DNA from: Dehalococcoidia bacterium
Lineage (GTDB): Bacteria; Chloroflexota; Dehalococcoidia; Dehalococcoidales; BS750m-G39
Length of the DNA: 64,000 nt
NCBI GenBank assembly: GCA_030608005.1
Contig: JAUWIX010000002.1
Location: 817-64,816, forward strand
Reading direction: 5' to 3'
Positions within the stretch are counted from its first letter, which is position 1, and every line of letters begins with the position of its first letter. Positions 1-53,545 of this stretch are shown here, piece after piece. The notes under the pieces were generated by a model. The model ran no database searches. It was not told where the DNA came from and was given only the letters and a program-made list of their open reading frames with translations. The position numbers and the translations under genes were made by a program.

Positions 1-81
1 AACAAGCTTCTGTAATTTCATTGTGGTCATAAGCCCTTGTTTCTCTAGTATATATTTTGCAACATCAAATACATTAGCCAT
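1..81 (-). CDS. Partial CDS (first 27 codons, continues past window edge): DUF4065/Panacea-domain (SocA/GepA-like antitoxin) protein
   Basis: The reverse strand from the ATG at 81 reads MANVFDVAKYILEKQGLMTTMKLQKLV, a typical N-terminus of Panacea/DUF4065 proteins. It is truncated by the window edge, so it is absent from the ORF track. Confidence 0.45.
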   Translation of the reverse strand, partial: MANVFDVAKYILEKQGLMTTMKLQKLV

Positions 82-204
82 ATCTATCCCCTCTGTCACA
101 CTCCTACTATAATTTTAACACTATATCCGCCTTTGTCAATACCCGTACTATGCATTTTAGCACATATGTTCCATTATTGCAAGTTACTTATGTCCCCGGT
201 ATAC

Positions 205-540
205 TTACCTTCTTTCTATATCCTGCTTGGTTAACTCTTGAAAGAAGCAGGTCTTGTTGCCGGTGTGACACACCGGACCGGTTGGCTTTCCTTTAATGAG
301 GATGGTATCGCTATCGCAGTCCTTCCATATTGAACGAACCTTGATAATGCTGCCCGAGGTTTCTCCTTTGTGCCATAACTCCTGTCGGCGGCGACTATAA
401 AACCAGACCTCACCGCTGGACAGGGTTCGGCGCAGTGCCTCTTCGTTCATGTAGGCCATCATCAGCACCTCGCCGGTGTCGGCATCTTGAGCTATAGCCG
501 GGATAAGCCCCTTTTCGTTGAACTTTAGATTTTCTATCAA
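205..540 (-). CDS. hisI: Phosphoribosyl-AMP cyclohydrolase
   Basis: The conserved HisI core is present (GLIPAIAQD...EVLMMAYMN...WFYSRRR...WHKGETSG...CHTGNKTCF). The likely start is the TTG at 540, directly after GGGGGTGAGG. The track ORF extends to a TTG at 615 through a repeat element. Confidence 0.85.
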   Translation of the reverse strand: MIENLKFNEKGLIPAIAQDADTGEVLMMAYMNEEALRRTLSSGEVWFYSRRRQELWHKGETSGSIIKVRSIWKDCDSDTILIKGKPTGPVCHTGNKTCFFQELTKQDIERR

Positions 541-627
541 CCTCACCCCCTGTGTCCCCCTCTCCTTTCCAGGAGGGGGGGAGGGATAATTCTTGAAGGG
601 GCGAAGCCCCTTCAAACTTCCCCCAGG
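541..627. repeat. GC-rich mosaic hairpin repeat (two hairpin modules)
   Basis: It has a cctcaccccc terminus and a ccccctctcc...ggaggggggg hairpin. It also has a ttgaaggggc-gaa-gccccttcaa hairpin at 593-615. The same modules recur at 9 other loci. Confidence 0.8.
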
Positions 628-3052: not shown

Positions 3053-3318
3053 GAGCTAGTTCAGATAGATAGGTGACACAGATTATCATGTTTCGTTTCT
3101 CTATAGCGTTGACCCTATCCCCCTGACCCCCTTCCCCTGGAGGGGAAGGGGGAAGTTGTTTTAAGAGGGGGCTTTGCCCCCTCTTTTTTATTCCTCCCCC
3201 TCCCTTTGTAAGGGAGGGGGAGGAAGCGGGTTCCCAGGAAAATCGAAGATTTTTCTGGTGCTTAAAGGGGGTGGGTTGCTAAGTAAATGTCCAAGGGGGT
3301 GAGATTAATAAACAATCT
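3053..3318 (+). mobile_element. MITE-like mosaic hairpin element (largest copy), flanked by a 12-bp direct repeat
   Basis: The T1 terminus gagctagttcagatagataggtgacacagattatcatgtttcgtttctc is followed by three GC hairpin modules and the T3 end taataaacaatct. The sequence cagcttgttcct occurs at both 3041-3052 and 3319-3330. Confidence 0.7.
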
Positions 3319-3348: not shown

Positions 3349-3963
3349 TTGTTAAACTATGCTCACTGTTGGTCAGCTTTTCGTTTAGGTGCTTCATTGG
3401 TTGGGAAGGCATCATCATATAACGCTCTGTCACCACAACCATGGCGCAGGGGTCTGGTTCAGATTTTCACTGGCGATGGGAAGGGGAAGACTTCAGCAGC
3501 CATAGGGGCAGTAATCCGAGCCTTGGGTCATGGTCTTAGGGTTTATATTGTCTATTTTATGAAAGGCGATTATCCCTATGGTGAACGCAATATCCTATCT
3601 CAGCTACCCAATGTTACTATGGGTAGTTTTGGGTGTGGGGGCTTTGTTGACCCAGCAAATATCAAGCCTGAGGAAAAGGAGCAGGCAAAACGGGCTTTAG
3701 CTGCTGCCCGTGAGGCTATGCTCAGCGGCGGCTATGAGCTGGTGGTTTTGGATGAGGTGAATCTTGCCGCAGCCTGGAACTTAGTTGAACTGGATGAGGT
3801 GGTCAGGCTTATTGATGATAAACCCGAGGATGTGGAGCTTATCCTTACCGGTCGCCGGGCTGATAGTAAGCTGGTTAAATCGGCTGACCTGGTTACTGAG
3901 ATGCTGAAGATTAAGCACCCTTATGATGAGGGGGTGATGGCGCGAGAGGGGATTGAGTATTAA
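3349..3963 (+). CDS. cobO: Cob(I)yrinic acid a,c-diamide adenosyltransferase (CobO/CobA family)
   Basis: It has the GLVQIFTGDGKGKTSAAIG P-loop and YELVVLDE, typical of CobA/CobO. The real start may be the TTG at 3397, after the SD TAGGTG. Confidence 0.8.
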   Translation: MLNYAHCWSAFRLGASLVGKASSYNALSPQPWRRGLVQIFTGDGKGKTSAAIGAVIRALGHGLRVYIVYFMKGDYPYGERNILSQLPNVTMGSFGCGGFVDPANIKPEEKEQAKRALAAAREAMLSGGYELVVLDEVNLAAAWNLVELDEVVRLIDDKPEDVELILTGRRADSKLVKSADLVTEMLKIKHPYDEGVMAREGIEY

Positions 3964-3991
3964 TCAAGCTCTGTAGAGGAAAGGAGGAATT

Positions 3992-42097: not shown

Positions 42098-43240
42098 CTA
42101 ATACTGCCTGCGCCTCCGCAATACCACCACTAGCAAGATAGCCATACCGATGATGAGCACGCCGGCAGCAATACTAACTATGAGCAGCAGGTTGAAGGGT
42201 GCAGTAACAGCGGTTGGAGCCGCGACTTCTAGCTCCTCTTCCAAGCTTGTGGTGTATAGCTTTCCACCCACATAGAGTTCAGCTTGGAAGGTATAGGTAC
42301 CAGCTTCCCATCCCTGGGGTGGAGTGTACTCCCAGCTGCCTCCGATGTCGCCCAGACTCAGCTCGCTTAGTGAAAGGAGAGGAATCTCTTCCAAAGCTTC
42401 CCCGTCTAGGCTGACCTTGAGGACAAGCCCAACATCAGCCATTGGCTGGTATAAGTTACTTATCTGATAGACCACCTTGACGAAGGCAAGCTCGCCGGTT
42501 TCGGTATAGTAGTTGAGCACGATGCCGAAGTGGGCAAAGTAGACCGTCTTCACGGTGAGGGTGATGGTTTTTGTCTCACCGGCGGCTACATCAAAGAATT
42601 CCTCAGCTAACTTCTTGCCGCCAACGTAGGCTCTTGCTACATAGTGCCCTGGCGAGACCTTGACCTCTAGAATACCCGTATTGCTGAAAGCGAACTCGTT
42701 TTCCCTGCCATCAATGAGCTTGAACAGCCTTACCTCAGCTACCACCGGCTGACCATCAGGGCTAACCACCCTTGCTTCTACCAAGGCTGACTGCCCGGTC
42801 ACCGTCAGCTTTGCCCTCTGGGCAACGGCAGTACCTATAGCAATCCCCTCAACCTTCTCTGGTGCTGCCTCGGCACGGACTAGAAGCTGGTATTCACCAG
42901 GCACAGCATTCTCCCCAACCCTCACTGTTACATAAACCTTCATCTGCTCGCCTGGCTTCAGAGGGAACTCATCCTCTGAGAAAAGAGCCTCTACCCCAAA
43001 AGGGGCTTCAGAAGCCATTCTCACCTGCAAATCCCTGTCCCCTTCATTAAATACCACTACATAGATTGTTGAACCGCTTACCTCTGCCCCTTGTGGTATC
43101 TGAAACTGCTGCTGACCAAAGGTGCCTGACATGGCAAACCCACCCTGGGCATGAGCCACATTGCCAAGCAAAGACAAAACTAAAAGCAGCGCAAGGGGGG
43201 CTAAGAAAGCCCCCCTCTTGCCTAAAGTCACTAAACTCAA
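42098..43240 (-). CDS. Cell-surface protein: signal peptide, beta-rich ectodomain, C-terminal TM anchor with RRRRQY tail
   Basis: The N-terminus is LAPLALLLVLSLLGNVAHAQG. The C-terminus is LLLIVSIAAGVLIIGMAILLVVVLRRRRQY. The ectodomain has an Ig-like/CARDB-like strand periodicity. Confidence 0.6.
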   Translation of the reverse strand: MSLVTLGKRGAFLAPLALLLVLSLLGNVAHAQGGFAMSGTFGQQQFQIPQGAEVSGSTIYVVVFNEGDRDLQVRMASEAPFGVEALFSEDEFPLKPGEQMKVYVTVRVGENAVPGEYQLLVRAEAAPEKVEGIAIGTAVAQRAKLTVTGQSALVEARVVSPDGQPVVAEVRLFKLIDGRENEFAFSNTGILEVKVSPGHYVARAYVGGKKLAEEFFDVAAGETKTITLTVKTVYFAHFGIVLNYYTETGELAFVKVVYQISNLYQPMADVGLVLKVSLDGEALEEIPLLSLSELSLGDIGGSWEYTPPQGWEAGTYTFQAELYVGGKLYTTSLEEELEVAAPTAVTAPFNLLLIVSIAAGVLIIGMAILLVVVLRRRRQY

Positions 43241-43256: not shown

Positions 43257-44732
43257 CTAATTGGTCACTTGCAAGTAGATAGTGCCGGTGAAGGTGCCTA
43301 CATAGATTCCTGTTGAACCCAGTATGATGTCCATATAAAGGTTCGTGGTAGTGGCGACTTCAGGAGCGTCAGCAATAGTCGCGGTACGAGCCGGTGCAAC
43401 ACTATCTATGTCAACATAGTCAGCAGTGGTCAAATACTGCGGCGTGCTTGGGTGCCCAGAACCACTGGTAGCGTCATCAATGGTCAGACAAAACTCATTG
43501 CTACCTGGACCGGCTGTGATTTTCAGCGCCATGGTATGTCCGGGGACGCCGTCTGACCAGGTAGTAGCGGACTTAACCTGGAGAGTATGAGTGTCATTGG
43601 CTATAGTCTCGCTTAACAGTATATTGTCACCAGGGGTTTGGATAGCTGCTGTTGCCCCCAGAGCCACATTGCCAAAGTCGATGTCAGCTGTGGTGCTGAT
43701 TGAGCAGTAGGCGCCCATTGAATTTAGCACTTTACTGACATCCTCCACACTGGCGGCCGCCAAGTCAACCACCTTAACATAGAAGTCCCACGAAGCTGCC
43801 GAGACGTCTACCTCTTGGGCAATCTTTCCTGGCGTGAATTCAAGCGTCCATGTGTCTGAAAGGTTTGTAAAAACAATTGGCGTCACGCAGTTATCGGTAT
43901 CAATAGTCCAGGTGTTGGTGGTGACTCCAGCACTCACCTCCATGCTCCAGCCATCGGTATCGTCCCACTTATAGATGGCACAAGCATCGGCGTCCCAGGC
44001 ACCCGGCGATGCCGATGGTATCCATGCCTGCGTGCCCTTAGGCTGAGTGGCTAAACTGGTGTACGCCGTCACCTCTGCCTTCACCCAGTAGAGACTTGCT
44101 ATAGCCGCTACTGTTGTTGTTGCCCAGTCCGCTGGGGTGTCAAAGGTAACATCGTGACTTCCGGCAGCAGCGGTAAAGCCATCGGTACCGTCCGTTACAT
44201 TGGAGAGAGCTGTCCAAGCTGAGCCATCCCAGTACTTCCAGGTTATTGTCCAGGTGCCTGCACCAGCCGTTCCAACATTCAGGCGCGCATAACCAAACTT
44301 ATGGTCAGCCCCAATGTAGTAAGCATCCTCCACTGCTGGTGTTTCCGGCAGCAGGGTCATGTCATCAGCAGTTGCTTCATTGGCTTCCGTAGTTTCAACG
44401 GTCGTACTTCCACCATCATCGGCTACAGCCCCACCAACAGCCGCCGGTGCGCTATAGTAAACCTCGATATCTATATAGTCGATGTGGTCTATGGTGTTGG
44501 AGTCACCAGCCACAATTTCCAACAGGAATGTGTCCAGTGGCACCAAGGTAGAAGTAGGGTCACCGTCAGAGTCCTTGAGCGTCACTGAGGTGATGGTAGG
44601 GGTATTGTTGGTTGATGTGGTTGAGCCGGTGGTAGTATCTGGGCCAGTAGCGGCTAAGGCTGCTACTCCTGGCACCAGCAGAACTGCTACCAGAGCCAAT
44701 GTTCCAACTAAAGCTAGAATTCTCTTTTTCAA
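43257..44732 (-). CDS. Secreted Thr/Asp/Trp-rich beta-sandwich surface protein (491 aa)
   Basis: A TTG start follows the SD AAAGGAG. It has a signal peptide (LALVAVLLVPGVAALAA) and a Thr-rich linker. The C-terminal strand motif is GIYVGTFTGTIYLQVTN. Confidence 0.6.
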   Translation of the reverse strand: MKKRILALVGTLALVAVLLVPGVAALAATGPDTTTGSTTSTNNTPTITSVTLKDSDGDPTSTLVPLDTFLLEIVAGDSNTIDHIDYIDIEVYYSAPAAVGGAVADDGGSTTVETTEANEATADDMTLLPETPAVEDAYYIGADHKFGYARLNVGTAGAGTWTITWKYWDGSAWTALSNVTDGTDGFTAAAGSHDVTFDTPADWATTTVAAIASLYWVKAEVTAYTSLATQPKGTQAWIPSASPGAWDADACAIYKWDDTDGWSMEVSAGVTTNTWTIDTDNCVTPIVFTNLSDTWTLEFTPGKIAQEVDVSAASWDFYVKVVDLAAASVEDVSKVLNSMGAYCSISTTADIDFGNVALGATAAIQTPGDNILLSETIANDTHTLQVKSATTWSDGVPGHTMALKITAGPGSNEFCLTIDDATSGSGHPSTPQYLTTADYVDIDSVAPARTATIADAPEVATTTNLYMDIILGSTGIYVGTFTGTIYLQVTN

Positions 44733-44875
44733 CCTTTTCTCCTTTCATTTTTTATTTTAGTCCTAGTTTGTTAAAACCCAGTGTTTTCATAGGCATCACC
44801 CCCTTTTCAAAGTTTGTTATCAGAAGTGCCAACTGTCTATATTGTCGCTATTTAAGTGCCTATAGTCACCCTAAT

Positions 44876-45007
44876 ACTAAATAGTATTTTTGTTGCCAAT
44901 AAAGACATCTGGGTTCGCTAGAGGTCAAGAGGCTTATAGACAAAAGTACTAAGGACTAATTGGTAACTTACCTATGCCACTACCACTTGACAAAAATACT
45001 ATTTAGT
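44876..45007. repeat. 18-bp perfect inverted repeat pair flanking a 96-bp segment
   Basis: actaaatagtatttttgt at 44876-44893 is the exact reverse complement of acaaaaatactatttagt at 44990-45007. The pair lies between the surface-protein operon and the recombinase gene. Confidence 0.9.
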
Positions 45008-45042
45008 TAGCTGGTATGCTAGTGCCTTAAAGGAGGAACATT

Positions 45043-45981
45043 GTGAAGAGCAAGTTAAACAAATTTTTGCGTTATCTTCAGATTGAGAAGGGGTTTTCTC
45101 AGGGCACTATCAAAGCATACCAACTTGATATAGAGAAAGGGCTGATTCCCTTCCTGCATCAGCGAGGTAAATTTGAAGTAGGAGAAGTCACCAAGAATGA
45201 CATTCGAGACTATCTGGACTATGTAGCTACTAGCAGAGGTAACTCCAATGTTACCAGGGCACGAAAACTGGCAGCGATAAAGTCGTTCTTCAACTACCTG
45301 ATAGAGACTGAAGAGTTAGAACTTAACCCAGCAGCCTCAATAAGGAGCCCTAAGATACCAGAGAAGGAGCCAGTGTACCTTACCGATGACGAGTCTATTC
45401 GCCTTTTGAGGACAATAACTCGAAAGGGCAGGCCACGGGTTCGTGAACGGGACTTAGCGATGGTTGTCCTCTTCCTTCACACTGGGCTGAGGGTATCGGA
45501 GTTGACAAAACTGAAGCTAGTCAATGTTGACCTTGACCGGGGTCAGATAAAGATAACCAGGAAAGGAAATAAAGAGCAGCATCTCCATCTGAATGGCGAA
45601 ACAGCAAGGGCATTGGCAAATTACCTAGCCAACCGTCCGGGGGCTCGAAACGGTAGATTCTTCGTTGGCACCAATGGGGGCAATCTGGATCGTGGCTATG
45701 TTTATGGTGTGGTACGAAGATACTTAAATTTGGCAGGCATCAATAAGGGTAAGCAGGGTCCTCACCTCCTAAGGCACACCTTCTGCACCAGATTACATCA
45801 GAAGGGAGTGGCACCCTTCACCATAAAAGACCTCGCTGGTCACAAAAGTCTTAACACCACCATGAGGTATATTAAGATTGAGAATAAGGAGCAGGCTGAA
45901 GCGATTGACCGGCTGGAATTTGGTATCCTTATAGGGGGGGGGTGCTCAATCTCGCCAAAGGTTGATAAGCAATCTAGGTAG
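45043..45981 (+). CDS. Tyrosine recombinase (XerC/XerD-integrase family)
   Basis: It has an N-terminal SAM-like core-binding domain (FLRYLQIEKGFSQGTIKAYQLDI). The catalytic residues are R (HTGLRVSEL), HLLRHTF and Y (TTMRYI). It has a GTG start after AAAGGAGG. Confidence 0.85.
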   Translation: MKSKLNKFLRYLQIEKGFSQGTIKAYQLDIEKGLIPFLHQRGKFEVGEVTKNDIRDYLDYVATSRGNSNVTRARKLAAIKSFFNYLIETEELELNPAASIRSPKIPEKEPVYLTDDESIRLLRTITRKGRPRVRERDLAMVVLFLHTGLRVSELTKLKLVNVDLDRGQIKITRKGNKEQHLHLNGETARALANYLANRPGARNGRFFVGTNGGNLDRGYVYGVVRRYLNLAGINKGKQGPHLLRHTFCTRLHQKGVAPFTIKDLAGHKSLNTTMRYIKIENKEQAEAIDRLEFGILIGGGCSISPKVDKQSR

Positions 45982-53222: not shown

Positions 53223-53545
53223 TTCCCACCCTCCCACCCACCCATGGGAGCTTGGCTCACCAGCCTCAGGGAGTGGGTGGGTGGGAAAAAATAAATTGAT
53301 AAACAACCTCTCCCAATTAATATAAGTATAGCACAAATCTGAATGGGTATCTGGTTATGGGGAGTTTAGGAGAGGCTATGTCCCCAGCCCCTCCCTATTT
53401 TTATAGCTCTTTCTTCCCACCCACCCGCCCTCGGGGGCTTCGCCCCCAATCTCCCGCTTTATCGGGGTGTCTAAGAGGGGGCAAAGCCCCCTCTTTTCAA
53501 AAAACCTTCCCCCTCTCCAAGAGTGGAGAGGGGGATTAAGAGGGT
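53223..53545. repeat. Dense array of GC-rich hairpin repeat modules
   Basis: The long palindrome ttcccaccctcccacccaccc...gggtgggtgggtgggaa is at 53223-53287. A T3-like segment is ataaattgataaacaacct. Three further modules (cttcccacccaccc, ggggtgtctaagagggggcaaagccccctctt, ccttccccctctccaagagtggagagggggatt) lie at 53411-53540. Confidence 0.8.

Follow-up and report, generated by a model that had tools for sequence, protein, structure and literature searches.

The Site Pair and Its Neighborhood

We analyzed a candidate invertible DNA switch that lies between a tyrosine recombinase gene and a two-gene operon in a 64,000-nt stretch of contig JAUWIX010000002.1 from a Dehalococcoidia bacterium (referred to below as the window). 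A sequence-only reading of this stretch had pointed to a perfect 18-bp inverted repeat bracketing 96 bp, and the sequence confirms both arms exactly. The left (distal) arm, ACTAAATAGTATTTTTGT (44876-44893), is composed of an outer arm ACTAAA, a center TAGTAT, and an inner arm TTTTGT. The right (proximal) arm, ACAAAAATACTATTTAGT (44990-45007), correspondingly contains an inner arm ACAAAA, a center ATACTA, and an outer arm TTTAGT. Each arm is 18 nt long, and together they form a 100% complementary inverted pair with 96 nt between them, which represents the candidate invertible segment (44894-44989). The repeat is real and far beyond chance. At up to three mismatches the 18-mer is found twice in the window, as the two arms only (shuffles expect 0.02), and the pattern ACWAAA-N6-TTTWGT, which we derived from the family of related loci described below, again recovers only the arms (0.01 expected). 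Across the entire window, there are just five inverted repeats of at least 15 nt whose two copies lie no more than 600 nt apart; besides the arms, a single one of these is perfect, a hairpin of 16 nt with a loop of 3 nt. The flanks immediately outside the arms read ccctaat and tagctgg, and we found no target-site duplication.

The right arm ends 35 nt ahead of the GTG start of the recombinase gene (45043), and 143 nt separate the left arm from the TTG codon (44732, minus strand) that opens the gene of a 491-aa protein. The layout seen in the sequence-only reading is thus correct, with its distances of 36 and 144 nt each being one too high. The 491-aa protein (43257-44732, minus strand) is a secreted protein with a signal peptide, for which we found no Pfam family at E values up to 5. 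It is followed by a 380-aa protein (42098-43240, minus strand) with a signal peptide, an immunoglobulin (Ig)-like NEW3/NPCBM_assoc domain, and a C-terminal membrane anchor. These two genes are the predicted targets of the switch. On the other side, the genes after the recombinase are rsmI, metG, and a polyprenyl synthase gene.

The presumed invertase is a Xer-like tyrosine recombinase of 312 aa (45043-45981, plus strand). It matches PF00589 and contains an N-terminal SAM-like domain, in line with the earlier assignment of a Xer/integrase-family tyrosine recombinase gene beside the right arm. An alignment to Escherichia coli XerD (1a0p) reveals that the six catalytic residues R, K, H, R, H, and Y are intact and reside in the motifs TGLRVSEL (R), KGNKEQ (K), HLLRHTF (H and R), LAGHKSL (H), and MRYIKI (Y). 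The enzyme scores below the equivalog thresholds of the XerC (195.7 bits, cut-off 335), XerD (183.5 bits, cut-off 329.6), and archaeal XerA models (192.4 bits, cut-off 220), and it does not reach the cut-offs of the FimB/E-type invertase models NF007371 (56.5, cut-off 222) and NF007370 (50.1, cut-off 221) or of the integron integrase model TIGR02249 (91 bits, cut-off 265). Its best structure matches are E. coli XerD (1a0p, 121 bits), which is the closest, and XerA (5hxy, 93 bits). Judged by these profile and structure matches, it is an active-looking Xer-like enzyme that is a member of none of the named families. The label "fim-type" given to the locus previously is therefore apt for the logic of the switch but not for its enzyme, a two-domain Xer-like protein that scores far below the FimB/E cut-offs.

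Related Loci and Segment Orientation

We searched for other copies of the site and for relatives of the recombinase. Scanning 185,579 species genomes with the exact 18-mer yielded 64 loci, each with a single copy, 62 of which belong to unrelated taxa by their titles and two to Dehalococcoidales. We inspected these two. One is a lone copy (L061; related loci carry L numbers throughout). In the other, more informative locus (L045), the 18-mer is one arm of an imperfect pair, 292 nt apart, which is located beside a recombinase ortholog. The search for further copies thus indicates that the 18-mer is not multicopy, neither in the window nor in these genomes. A protein search with the recombinase returned 724 relatives at E values of 1e-20 or lower, and the best 120 of these all share at least 79% identity with it; the few relatives among the 120 that have a name are called 'XerD' or 'tyrosine-type recombinase [Chloroflexi bacterium]'. 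Using the recombinase protein to scan metagenomes, we obtained 80 loci at 74-87% identity, of 329 relatives, which together with L045 form a comparison set of 81 related loci. In none of the 81 is rsmI or metG found downstream of the recombinase, and a synteny test located homologs of both window surface proteins upstream in L136 only. With a variable context and absent synteny, the recombinase and its upstream region appear as a unit placed in many genomic contexts and not as a housekeeping gene.

We next asked for an inverted ACWAAA-N6-TTTWGT partner with at most three mismatches and found it at the distal side in 62 of the 74 loci that reach far enough upstream (54 non-redundant loci). The partners are spaced 96-544 nt apart in 61 loci and 15 nt apart in one. 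The proximal site is usually located 27-36 nt upstream of the recombinase start, and up to 103 nt upstream in a few loci. The center of the site (positions 7-12) occurs in 21 hexamer variants across the loci, and in 61 of 62 cases the two partners of a locus share the same center. Over positions 1-18, except for positions 3 and 16, the identity between partners is 0.91 or higher, and just outside it amounts to 0.04-0.3. Two 6-nt arms placed around an asymmetric 6-nt center represent the core-site anatomy of tyrosine recombinases of the Xer, Cre, and FLP type. The covarying centers and the sharp 18-nt boundaries together indicate that the sites recombine with each other, rather than serving as an operator. 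We regard the window locus as a single member of a large family of such switches, as yet undescribed, in uncultured Dehalococcoidia-type Chloroflexi.

The two ends of the segment can be told apart, which allowed us to assign an orientation to each locus. One end always reads ...TTG/ACAAAA (the slash marks the boundary between segment and arm), generating a TTGACA hexamer across the boundary, and the other end reads ...TTGGCA/ACTAAA or ...TTGACT/ACTAAA. Among the 62 loci, the TTGACA end is found beside the recombinase in 34, at the distal side in 26, and at both ends in 2. A match to at least five of the six TTGACA positions, TTGAC(A/T), is present in all 62 loci, at one segment end in 60 and at both ends in 2. 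When inner segments were compared in pairs, a minus-strand alignment was obtained for 313 of 332 pairs in different states and a plus-strand alignment for 294 of 310 pairs in the same state; the alignment strand was hence predicted by the state of the TTGACA end in 607 of 642 pairs. It follows that homologous inner segments have been flipped many times relative to their flanks. In the closest relatives of the window, L067 and L152, a window-type segment is found in the same orientation as in the window. An inverted window-type segment is present in L094 (83% over 103 nt, minus strand), where the recombinase leader is collinear with that of the window. The L094 sites (L094 1-247) are mismatched and partly deleted, reading ACAAAAATGTTATT-AGT versus ACAAAATGATTACTTTGT. 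Its distal junction still contains TTGACA-N17-TAAAGT, and the locus appears to be locked in the predicted ON state.

Contigs from other samples provide a second view of the window locus. We found them by looking up the exact 491-aa and 380-aa proteins. Four contigs with the exact surface gene extend no more than 161 nt ahead of the gene, and three contigs from three samples (ENA ERZ4220937 and Logan SRR12623522 and SRR12623519) start at the first base of the arm, in the reading ACAAAAATACTATTTAGT. In all three samples, this contig start coincides with the exact inner edge of the left arm. The only contig found with the exact recombinase, L001 (ERZ4219663), begins 55 nt outside the segment edge, and the window and L001 have one and the same orientation. 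In addition, among 54 truncated metagenome contigs, 5 have their end inside the proximal site. Contigs from de Bruijn assemblers terminate at branch points, and we assume that k-mers longer than 18 nt were used. An 18-nt repeat alone would then be insufficient to break a contig, and two different sequences should follow the arm in the reads. The contig breaks therefore suggest that both junctions exist in the reads, with heterogeneity in inversion being the simplest reading.

Promoter Geometry and Alternative Explanations

We inspected both segment boundaries for promoter elements. The canonical sigma-70 geometry is TTGACA-N17-TAnnnT, and a spacing of 20 nt is strongly unfavorable. In the window, the TTGACA -35 element (A end, 44987-44992, plus strand) straddles the boundary between segment and arm and at present points at the recombinase gene. 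The opposite B end contains a -35-like TTGGCA (44894-44899, minus strand), located 20 nt from a candidate fixed -10 element, TAGGGT (44868-44873, minus strand), and predicted to be non-productive at present. This TAGGGT is positioned 2 nt outside the left arm and faces the surface operon. The related loci show the same asymmetry: the distal outer flank has TA at position +3 in 50 of the 54 non-redundant loci and TAnnnT in 34 of them, and for the proximal outer flank these numbers are 3 and 0. At the A end, we found TTGACA or variants with one mismatch, such as TTGACT. TAGGGT occurs at the same position in L100 and L107, and in L045 and L079 we found TTGACA-N17-TATAAA in front of an XRE-type gene. 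A generic promoter scan of 44600-45200 detected neither junction promoter in the present orientation, as would be expected for a switch in the OFF position. From the geometry only, that is TTGACA-N17-TAnnnT versus TTGGCA-N20, we infer that transcription of the neighboring gene depends on the orientation of the segment. On the recombinase side, the outer arm (consensus CAACTAAA) is similar to the TTGGCA/GCCAAC end, and the TTGGCA/TTGCCA B end may thus be an extended recombinase-binding arm (consensus GNCAAC-TAAA) rather than a promoter. The sequence-only reading had also noted a TTGACC hexamer facing the surface genes with a weak -10. The hexamer is present (44923-44928, minus strand), but its relevance as the switch promoter did not hold up, as it lacks both a usable -10 and conservation among the relatives.

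Together, these findings make it likely that the window contains a site-specific inverton that is run by the adjacent Xer-like recombinase and has a promoter split across the distal site. The 96-bp piece is very probably flipped by the neighboring recombinase. In the mechanism that we propose, the 18-nt arm would be the core site, with the 6-nt half-sites ACWAAA and TTTWGT arranged around the asymmetric center ATACTA. As the sites are inverted, strand exchange in the centers would flip the 96-bp segment. The promoter of the surface operon would be split, with the fixed -10 TAGGGT outside the arm, the arm itself acting as the spacer, and the segment end supplying the -35. In the present orientation the arrangement is TTGGCA-N20-TAGGGT, whose spacing is wrong, and the operon is predicted to be OFF or low; after a flip it would become TTGACA-N17-TAGGGT, predicted to be ON. 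The predicted flipped junctions read ...CCACTTG/ACAAAAATACTATTTAGT/ATTAGGGTG... and ...CTTTATTGGCA/ACAAAAATACTATTTAGT/TAGCTGG.... As the recombination site would double as the promoter spacer, the segment would need to deliver only a -35. The inverton interpretation of the sequence-only reading is thus reinforced by a site pair in more than 50 non-redundant loci, the covariation of the centers, the occurrence of both orientations, and the contig breaks at the arm edge.

The recombinase gene seems to have a promoter of its own. An extended -10 element, TGgTATGCT (45012-45020, plus strand), is found past the proximal arm, with its hexamer beginning 7 nt from the arm. TGnTATGCT is kept in most orthologous loci, and in 32 of 54 loci, the window among them, it is located 7-8 nt past the proximal site. 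With this element outside the segment, the recombinase would be made in both states. The proximal site overlaps the recombinase promoter, and autoregulation by self-binding may be possible. In many orthologs, the Shine-Dalgarno sequence forms part of the loop and stem of a conserved GTGCC...GGCAC hairpin (for example AGTGCCTGAAAGGAGGGCACATG in L079), which may limit translation of the recombinase. In the window, positions 45022-45045 read GTGCCTTAAAGGAGGAACATTGTG, and the 3' half of this stem has been lost. The window recombinase also differs in length from most relatives (312 versus 296 aa), having a C-terminal extension of ∼16 aa (45934-45981). The contig NODE_3029 from ERZ4220937 (L150 1-81) begins inside the last 26 codons of the recombinase gene. 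Metagenome assemblies thus break within the recombinase gene too, which may be caused by similar recombinase genes in one sample.

Several points weigh against an inverton with a split promoter at this locus. A co-occurring strain with another segment beside the same flank and arm could also cause the contig breaks. Among the compared loci we did not find a near-identical pair (at least 97%) in opposite states, the best opposite-state pair being 92% identical over the distal flank and 83% over the recombinase gene. Looking up the closest recombinase relatives, P0002, P0003, and P0009, returned none with the window flanks in the flipped state; the loci obtained were L152 (window state, with a WxL-type operon), L151 (with the RNA described below and a distal TTGACA end), and L153 (a truncated contig). 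The evidence for both orientations at this exact locus is indirect, coming from the contig starts at the arm edge, and ongoing switching is likely. That the neighboring recombinase rather than another enzyme does the flipping is inferred from linkage only. With regard to the promoter, the window TAGGGT matches the -10 consensus at only 3 of 6 positions, though A2 and T6 are kept, and in the generic scan the 143-nt leader has two weak sites (44774-44747, minus strand), which could allow for expression independent of orientation. The conserved TTGGCA/TTGCCA end could serve some further role. Finally, the recombinase -10 abuts the proximal site (offset 0 nt) in 11 of 54 loci, with N15 or N18, and in these loci the orientation may affect expression of the recombinase as well.

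We compared the inverton model with four other explanations. The one that survives best, which we nevertheless regard as improbable, is a fossil or locked switch: the family would invert over evolutionary time, while the window copy has no useful flip rate and its operon is constitutively expressed or silent. The single orientation shared by the window and L001, the same state in the closest relatives L067 and L152, and the degenerate, mismatched sites of the inverted homolog L094 would all be consistent with this. Against it, the window arms are identical at 18 of 18 positions, the catalytic residues of the recombinase are intact, and contigs from three samples branch at the arm edge.

It is very unlikely that the arms are instead operators or promoter elements, with a regulator binding to a palindrome in two divergent promoters and no inversion taking place. 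The arms are indeed palindromic in part (ACWAAA...TTTWGT), each overlaps promoter-like elements on either side, and the L045 copy is located inside the textbook TTGACA-N17-TATAAA promoter of the XRE-type gene. An operator would be expected to have one conserved sequence across loci, yet the center varies jointly in both partners (61 of 62 loci, 21 variants), the inner segments are found in both orientations, and the identity between partners stops at the 18-nt boundary. Moreover, the pair is always tied to a tyrosine recombinase while the gene on the other side varies. The regulator-binding site that was considered as an alternative in the sequence-only reading is thus largely refuted by the center covariation and the two segment orientations.

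A 132-bp miniature mobile element with 18-bp terminal inverted repeats, the second alternative raised there, can be all but dismissed: its size and terminal repeats fit, and the recombinase-plus-switch module does occur in many contexts, but the element is single copy in the 64 kb, the exact 18-mer is single copy in each of the 64 genome loci, a target-site duplication is missing, and the pair is strictly linked to the recombinase, always immediately upstream of it, with segments of 96-544 nt around conserved content. We consider it equally hard to sustain that the chromosomal Xer enzyme is encoded here and uses one of the arms as its dif site (similar to XerS/difSL), with the second arm being incidental, because the best profiles (XerC, XerA, and XerD), the best structure (XerD), the relatives named 'XerD', and the arm-center-arm anatomy that speak for it are countered by scores below all Xer equivalog cut-offs, inverted pairs in more than 50 loci, the lack of synteny with rsmI or metG (0 of 81), hundreds of distinct close relatives, two recombinase genes at one switch in L071, and a center that differs by locus, unlike in dif; the conserved XerC/D acting at dif, which the sequence-only reading had named as the case that would overturn it, is therefore not what we find.

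Target Genes, Structured RNA, and Known Systems

We analyzed the genes located on the distal side of the switches. The nearest distal open reading frame usually diverges from the recombinase gene, and it belongs to different families in different loci. A Pfam scan identified secreted beta-helix proteins of 950 aa, WxL/WxLIP/CARDB proteins, response regulators, HTH_26/XRE proteins, and LuxR-type proteins; further large secreted proteins and a histidine kinase were assigned by sequence. A response-regulator cluster is located distally in 20 loci. L136 contains, behind a same-family switch, a response regulator followed by homologs of both window proteins, with 44% identity to the 491-aa protein and 60% identity to the 380-aa protein. 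L067 and L152 harbor an analogous pair, composed of a WxL-like protein and a WxLIP_PGBD/CARDB protein. The window operon, which encodes a secreted protein and a membrane-anchored Ig-domain protein, fits the surface-protein class.

The segments of many relatives contain an additional element. A conserved RNA-like gene of ∼140 nt is found within the segment in 48 of 82 related loci, for example in L079 (2434-2577, minus strand), L045 (5152-5295, plus strand), L077 (233-374, plus strand), and ∼45 others. It has its own TTGCCA-N17/18-TATAAT promoter, inner hairpins, and a terminator-like hairpin. Compensatory changes affect 5 of the 12 pairs in its closing stem (GC to CG, UA to AU or GC, AU to CG, and CG to UA). 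The RNA reads toward the TTGACA end in all loci compared for strand and state, except for L095. A covariance model, R1, matches only inside switches, with the strand set by the state of the switch. R1 has no match in the window, whose 96-bp segment is a minimal version without the structured RNA gene of most relatives. An Rfam 15 search with L045 and with the L079 segment returned no family for the RNA, and noise only. The RNA could be a riboswitch-like leader or a small RNA that is carried by the switch.

We compared the window switch to known systems. In the E. coli fimS switch, a segment flanked by inverted repeats is inverted by the adjacent tyrosine recombinases FimB and FimE, and inversion controls a surface-structure operon. 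The fimS segment is 314 bp long, holds the whole promoter, and has 9-bp repeats, and FimB and FimE are ∼200 aa proteins without an N-terminal SAM-like domain. The window locus resembles fimS in having a short invertible segment next to its own tyrosine recombinase gene and a neighboring surface operon that is predicted to be controlled by it. In contrast to fimS, its enzyme is a two-domain Xer-like protein, its arms are 18 nt long, and its promoter is apparently split across the arm. Gut Bacteroidales and other bacteria (the class analyzed with PhaseFinder) and the RecV switches of Clostridioides difficile contain short invertible regulatory segments, often located next to tyrosine recombinases and with many per genome or lineage, whose targets are surface proteins, polysaccharides, and regulators. 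Bacteroides invertons carry a complete promoter, the C. difficile switches at cwpV (a terminator) and flgB act after initiation, and these systems are mainly known from host-associated bacteria. The loci described here share with them a family of short regulatory segments flanked by inverted repeats, but differ in that each cassette has its own recombinase and its own center sequence.

The closest protein similarity is to the single-recombinase Xer systems XerS/difSL, XerH/difH, and archaeal XerA/dif, which also have two short arms around a 6-nt center and a site near the gene. Unlike these, the loci analyzed here have two inverted sites, a locus-specific center, a variable context, and many close relatives, and the outcome would be inversion rather than chromosome-dimer resolution. 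The promoter arrangement has its nearest parallels elsewhere. The IS1 hybrid promoter and hif spacer variation are both mentioned in PMC9820224. As in the hybrid promoters formed by the ends of insertion sequences (IS) such as IS1 and IS2, whose terminal repeats contain a -35 that faces outward, a movable end would bring a -35 to a resident -10, and as in Haemophilus hif, expression would be set by the spacing between -35 and -10 (17 versus 20 nt here). Unlike in these cases, the change would come about by reversible site-specific inversion and not by transposition or slipped-strand mispairing, and the recombination site itself would represent the promoter spacer. The split promoter thus appears to resemble IS-end hybrid promoters and spacer-length phase variation more than the design with the promoter inside the segment. 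In kind, a promoter inverton similar to those of fim and Bacteroides is already known; the differences lie in the enzyme, the apparently split promoter, the private center, the host lineage, and the RNA in most relatives. In the literature collection searched, no paper dealt with both invertons and Dehalococcoidia, and the sole hit for invertons together with Chloroflexi was an hsdS survey.

Most of what is known about inversion-based phase variation comes from host-associated bacteria. Dehalococcoidia-type Chloroflexi are thought to be slow-growing organisms with streamlined genomes, and almost nothing is known about their surface biology. Our analysis places inversion, as a large and diversified family, in uncultured Chloroflexi from the subsurface, sediment, and groundwater. 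The existence of this family predicts that populations of these organisms are heterogeneous in their surface proteins and regulators, with possible links to phage or predator pressure and to attachment. The compact design, in which the site is the spacer and the -35 is movable, may be of interest to those who build genetic switches, and, through their locus-specific centers, the sites of this one recombinase family form a naturally occurring, mutually exclusive set. The structured RNA in most switches is a separate new lead. It is conceivable, though we would put it forward only tentatively, that the loci represent portable cassettes of a recombinase and a split promoter, whose private crossovers would prevent cross-recombination and which would provide stochastic ON/OFF control of surface proteins and regulators (response regulators and XRE- and LuxR-type proteins). 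In this doubtful extension of the model, a flip would send an RNA-gated (riboswitch-like) transcript either toward the target gene or toward the recombinase gene, and switching would thereby be coupled to a signal.

Some related loci deviate from the simple arrangement of one recombinase gene and two sites. Just upstream of the recombinase, L111 (∼1155-1200), L133 (∼3925-3970), L135 (∼1415-1460), L124, and L117 have the site twice in tandem, for example TTGACTAAAACATTATTTAGC-ATTGACAAAAACATTATTTAGT. These loci have three sites in all, and alternative inversions or deletions could occur. In L071, two recombinase genes of the same family (1-560, minus strand, and 1044 onward, plus strand) diverge from a single switch, and the distal flank contains a TGnTATGCT leader as found on the proximal flank. 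Elsewhere in the window, the perfect 16-nt hairpin is located at 3191-3225 (TTCCTCCCCCTCCCTT / AAGGGAGGGGGAGGAA), and a GC-rich inverted pair of 46 nt, 72% complementary and 118 nt apart, is found at 53246-53455.

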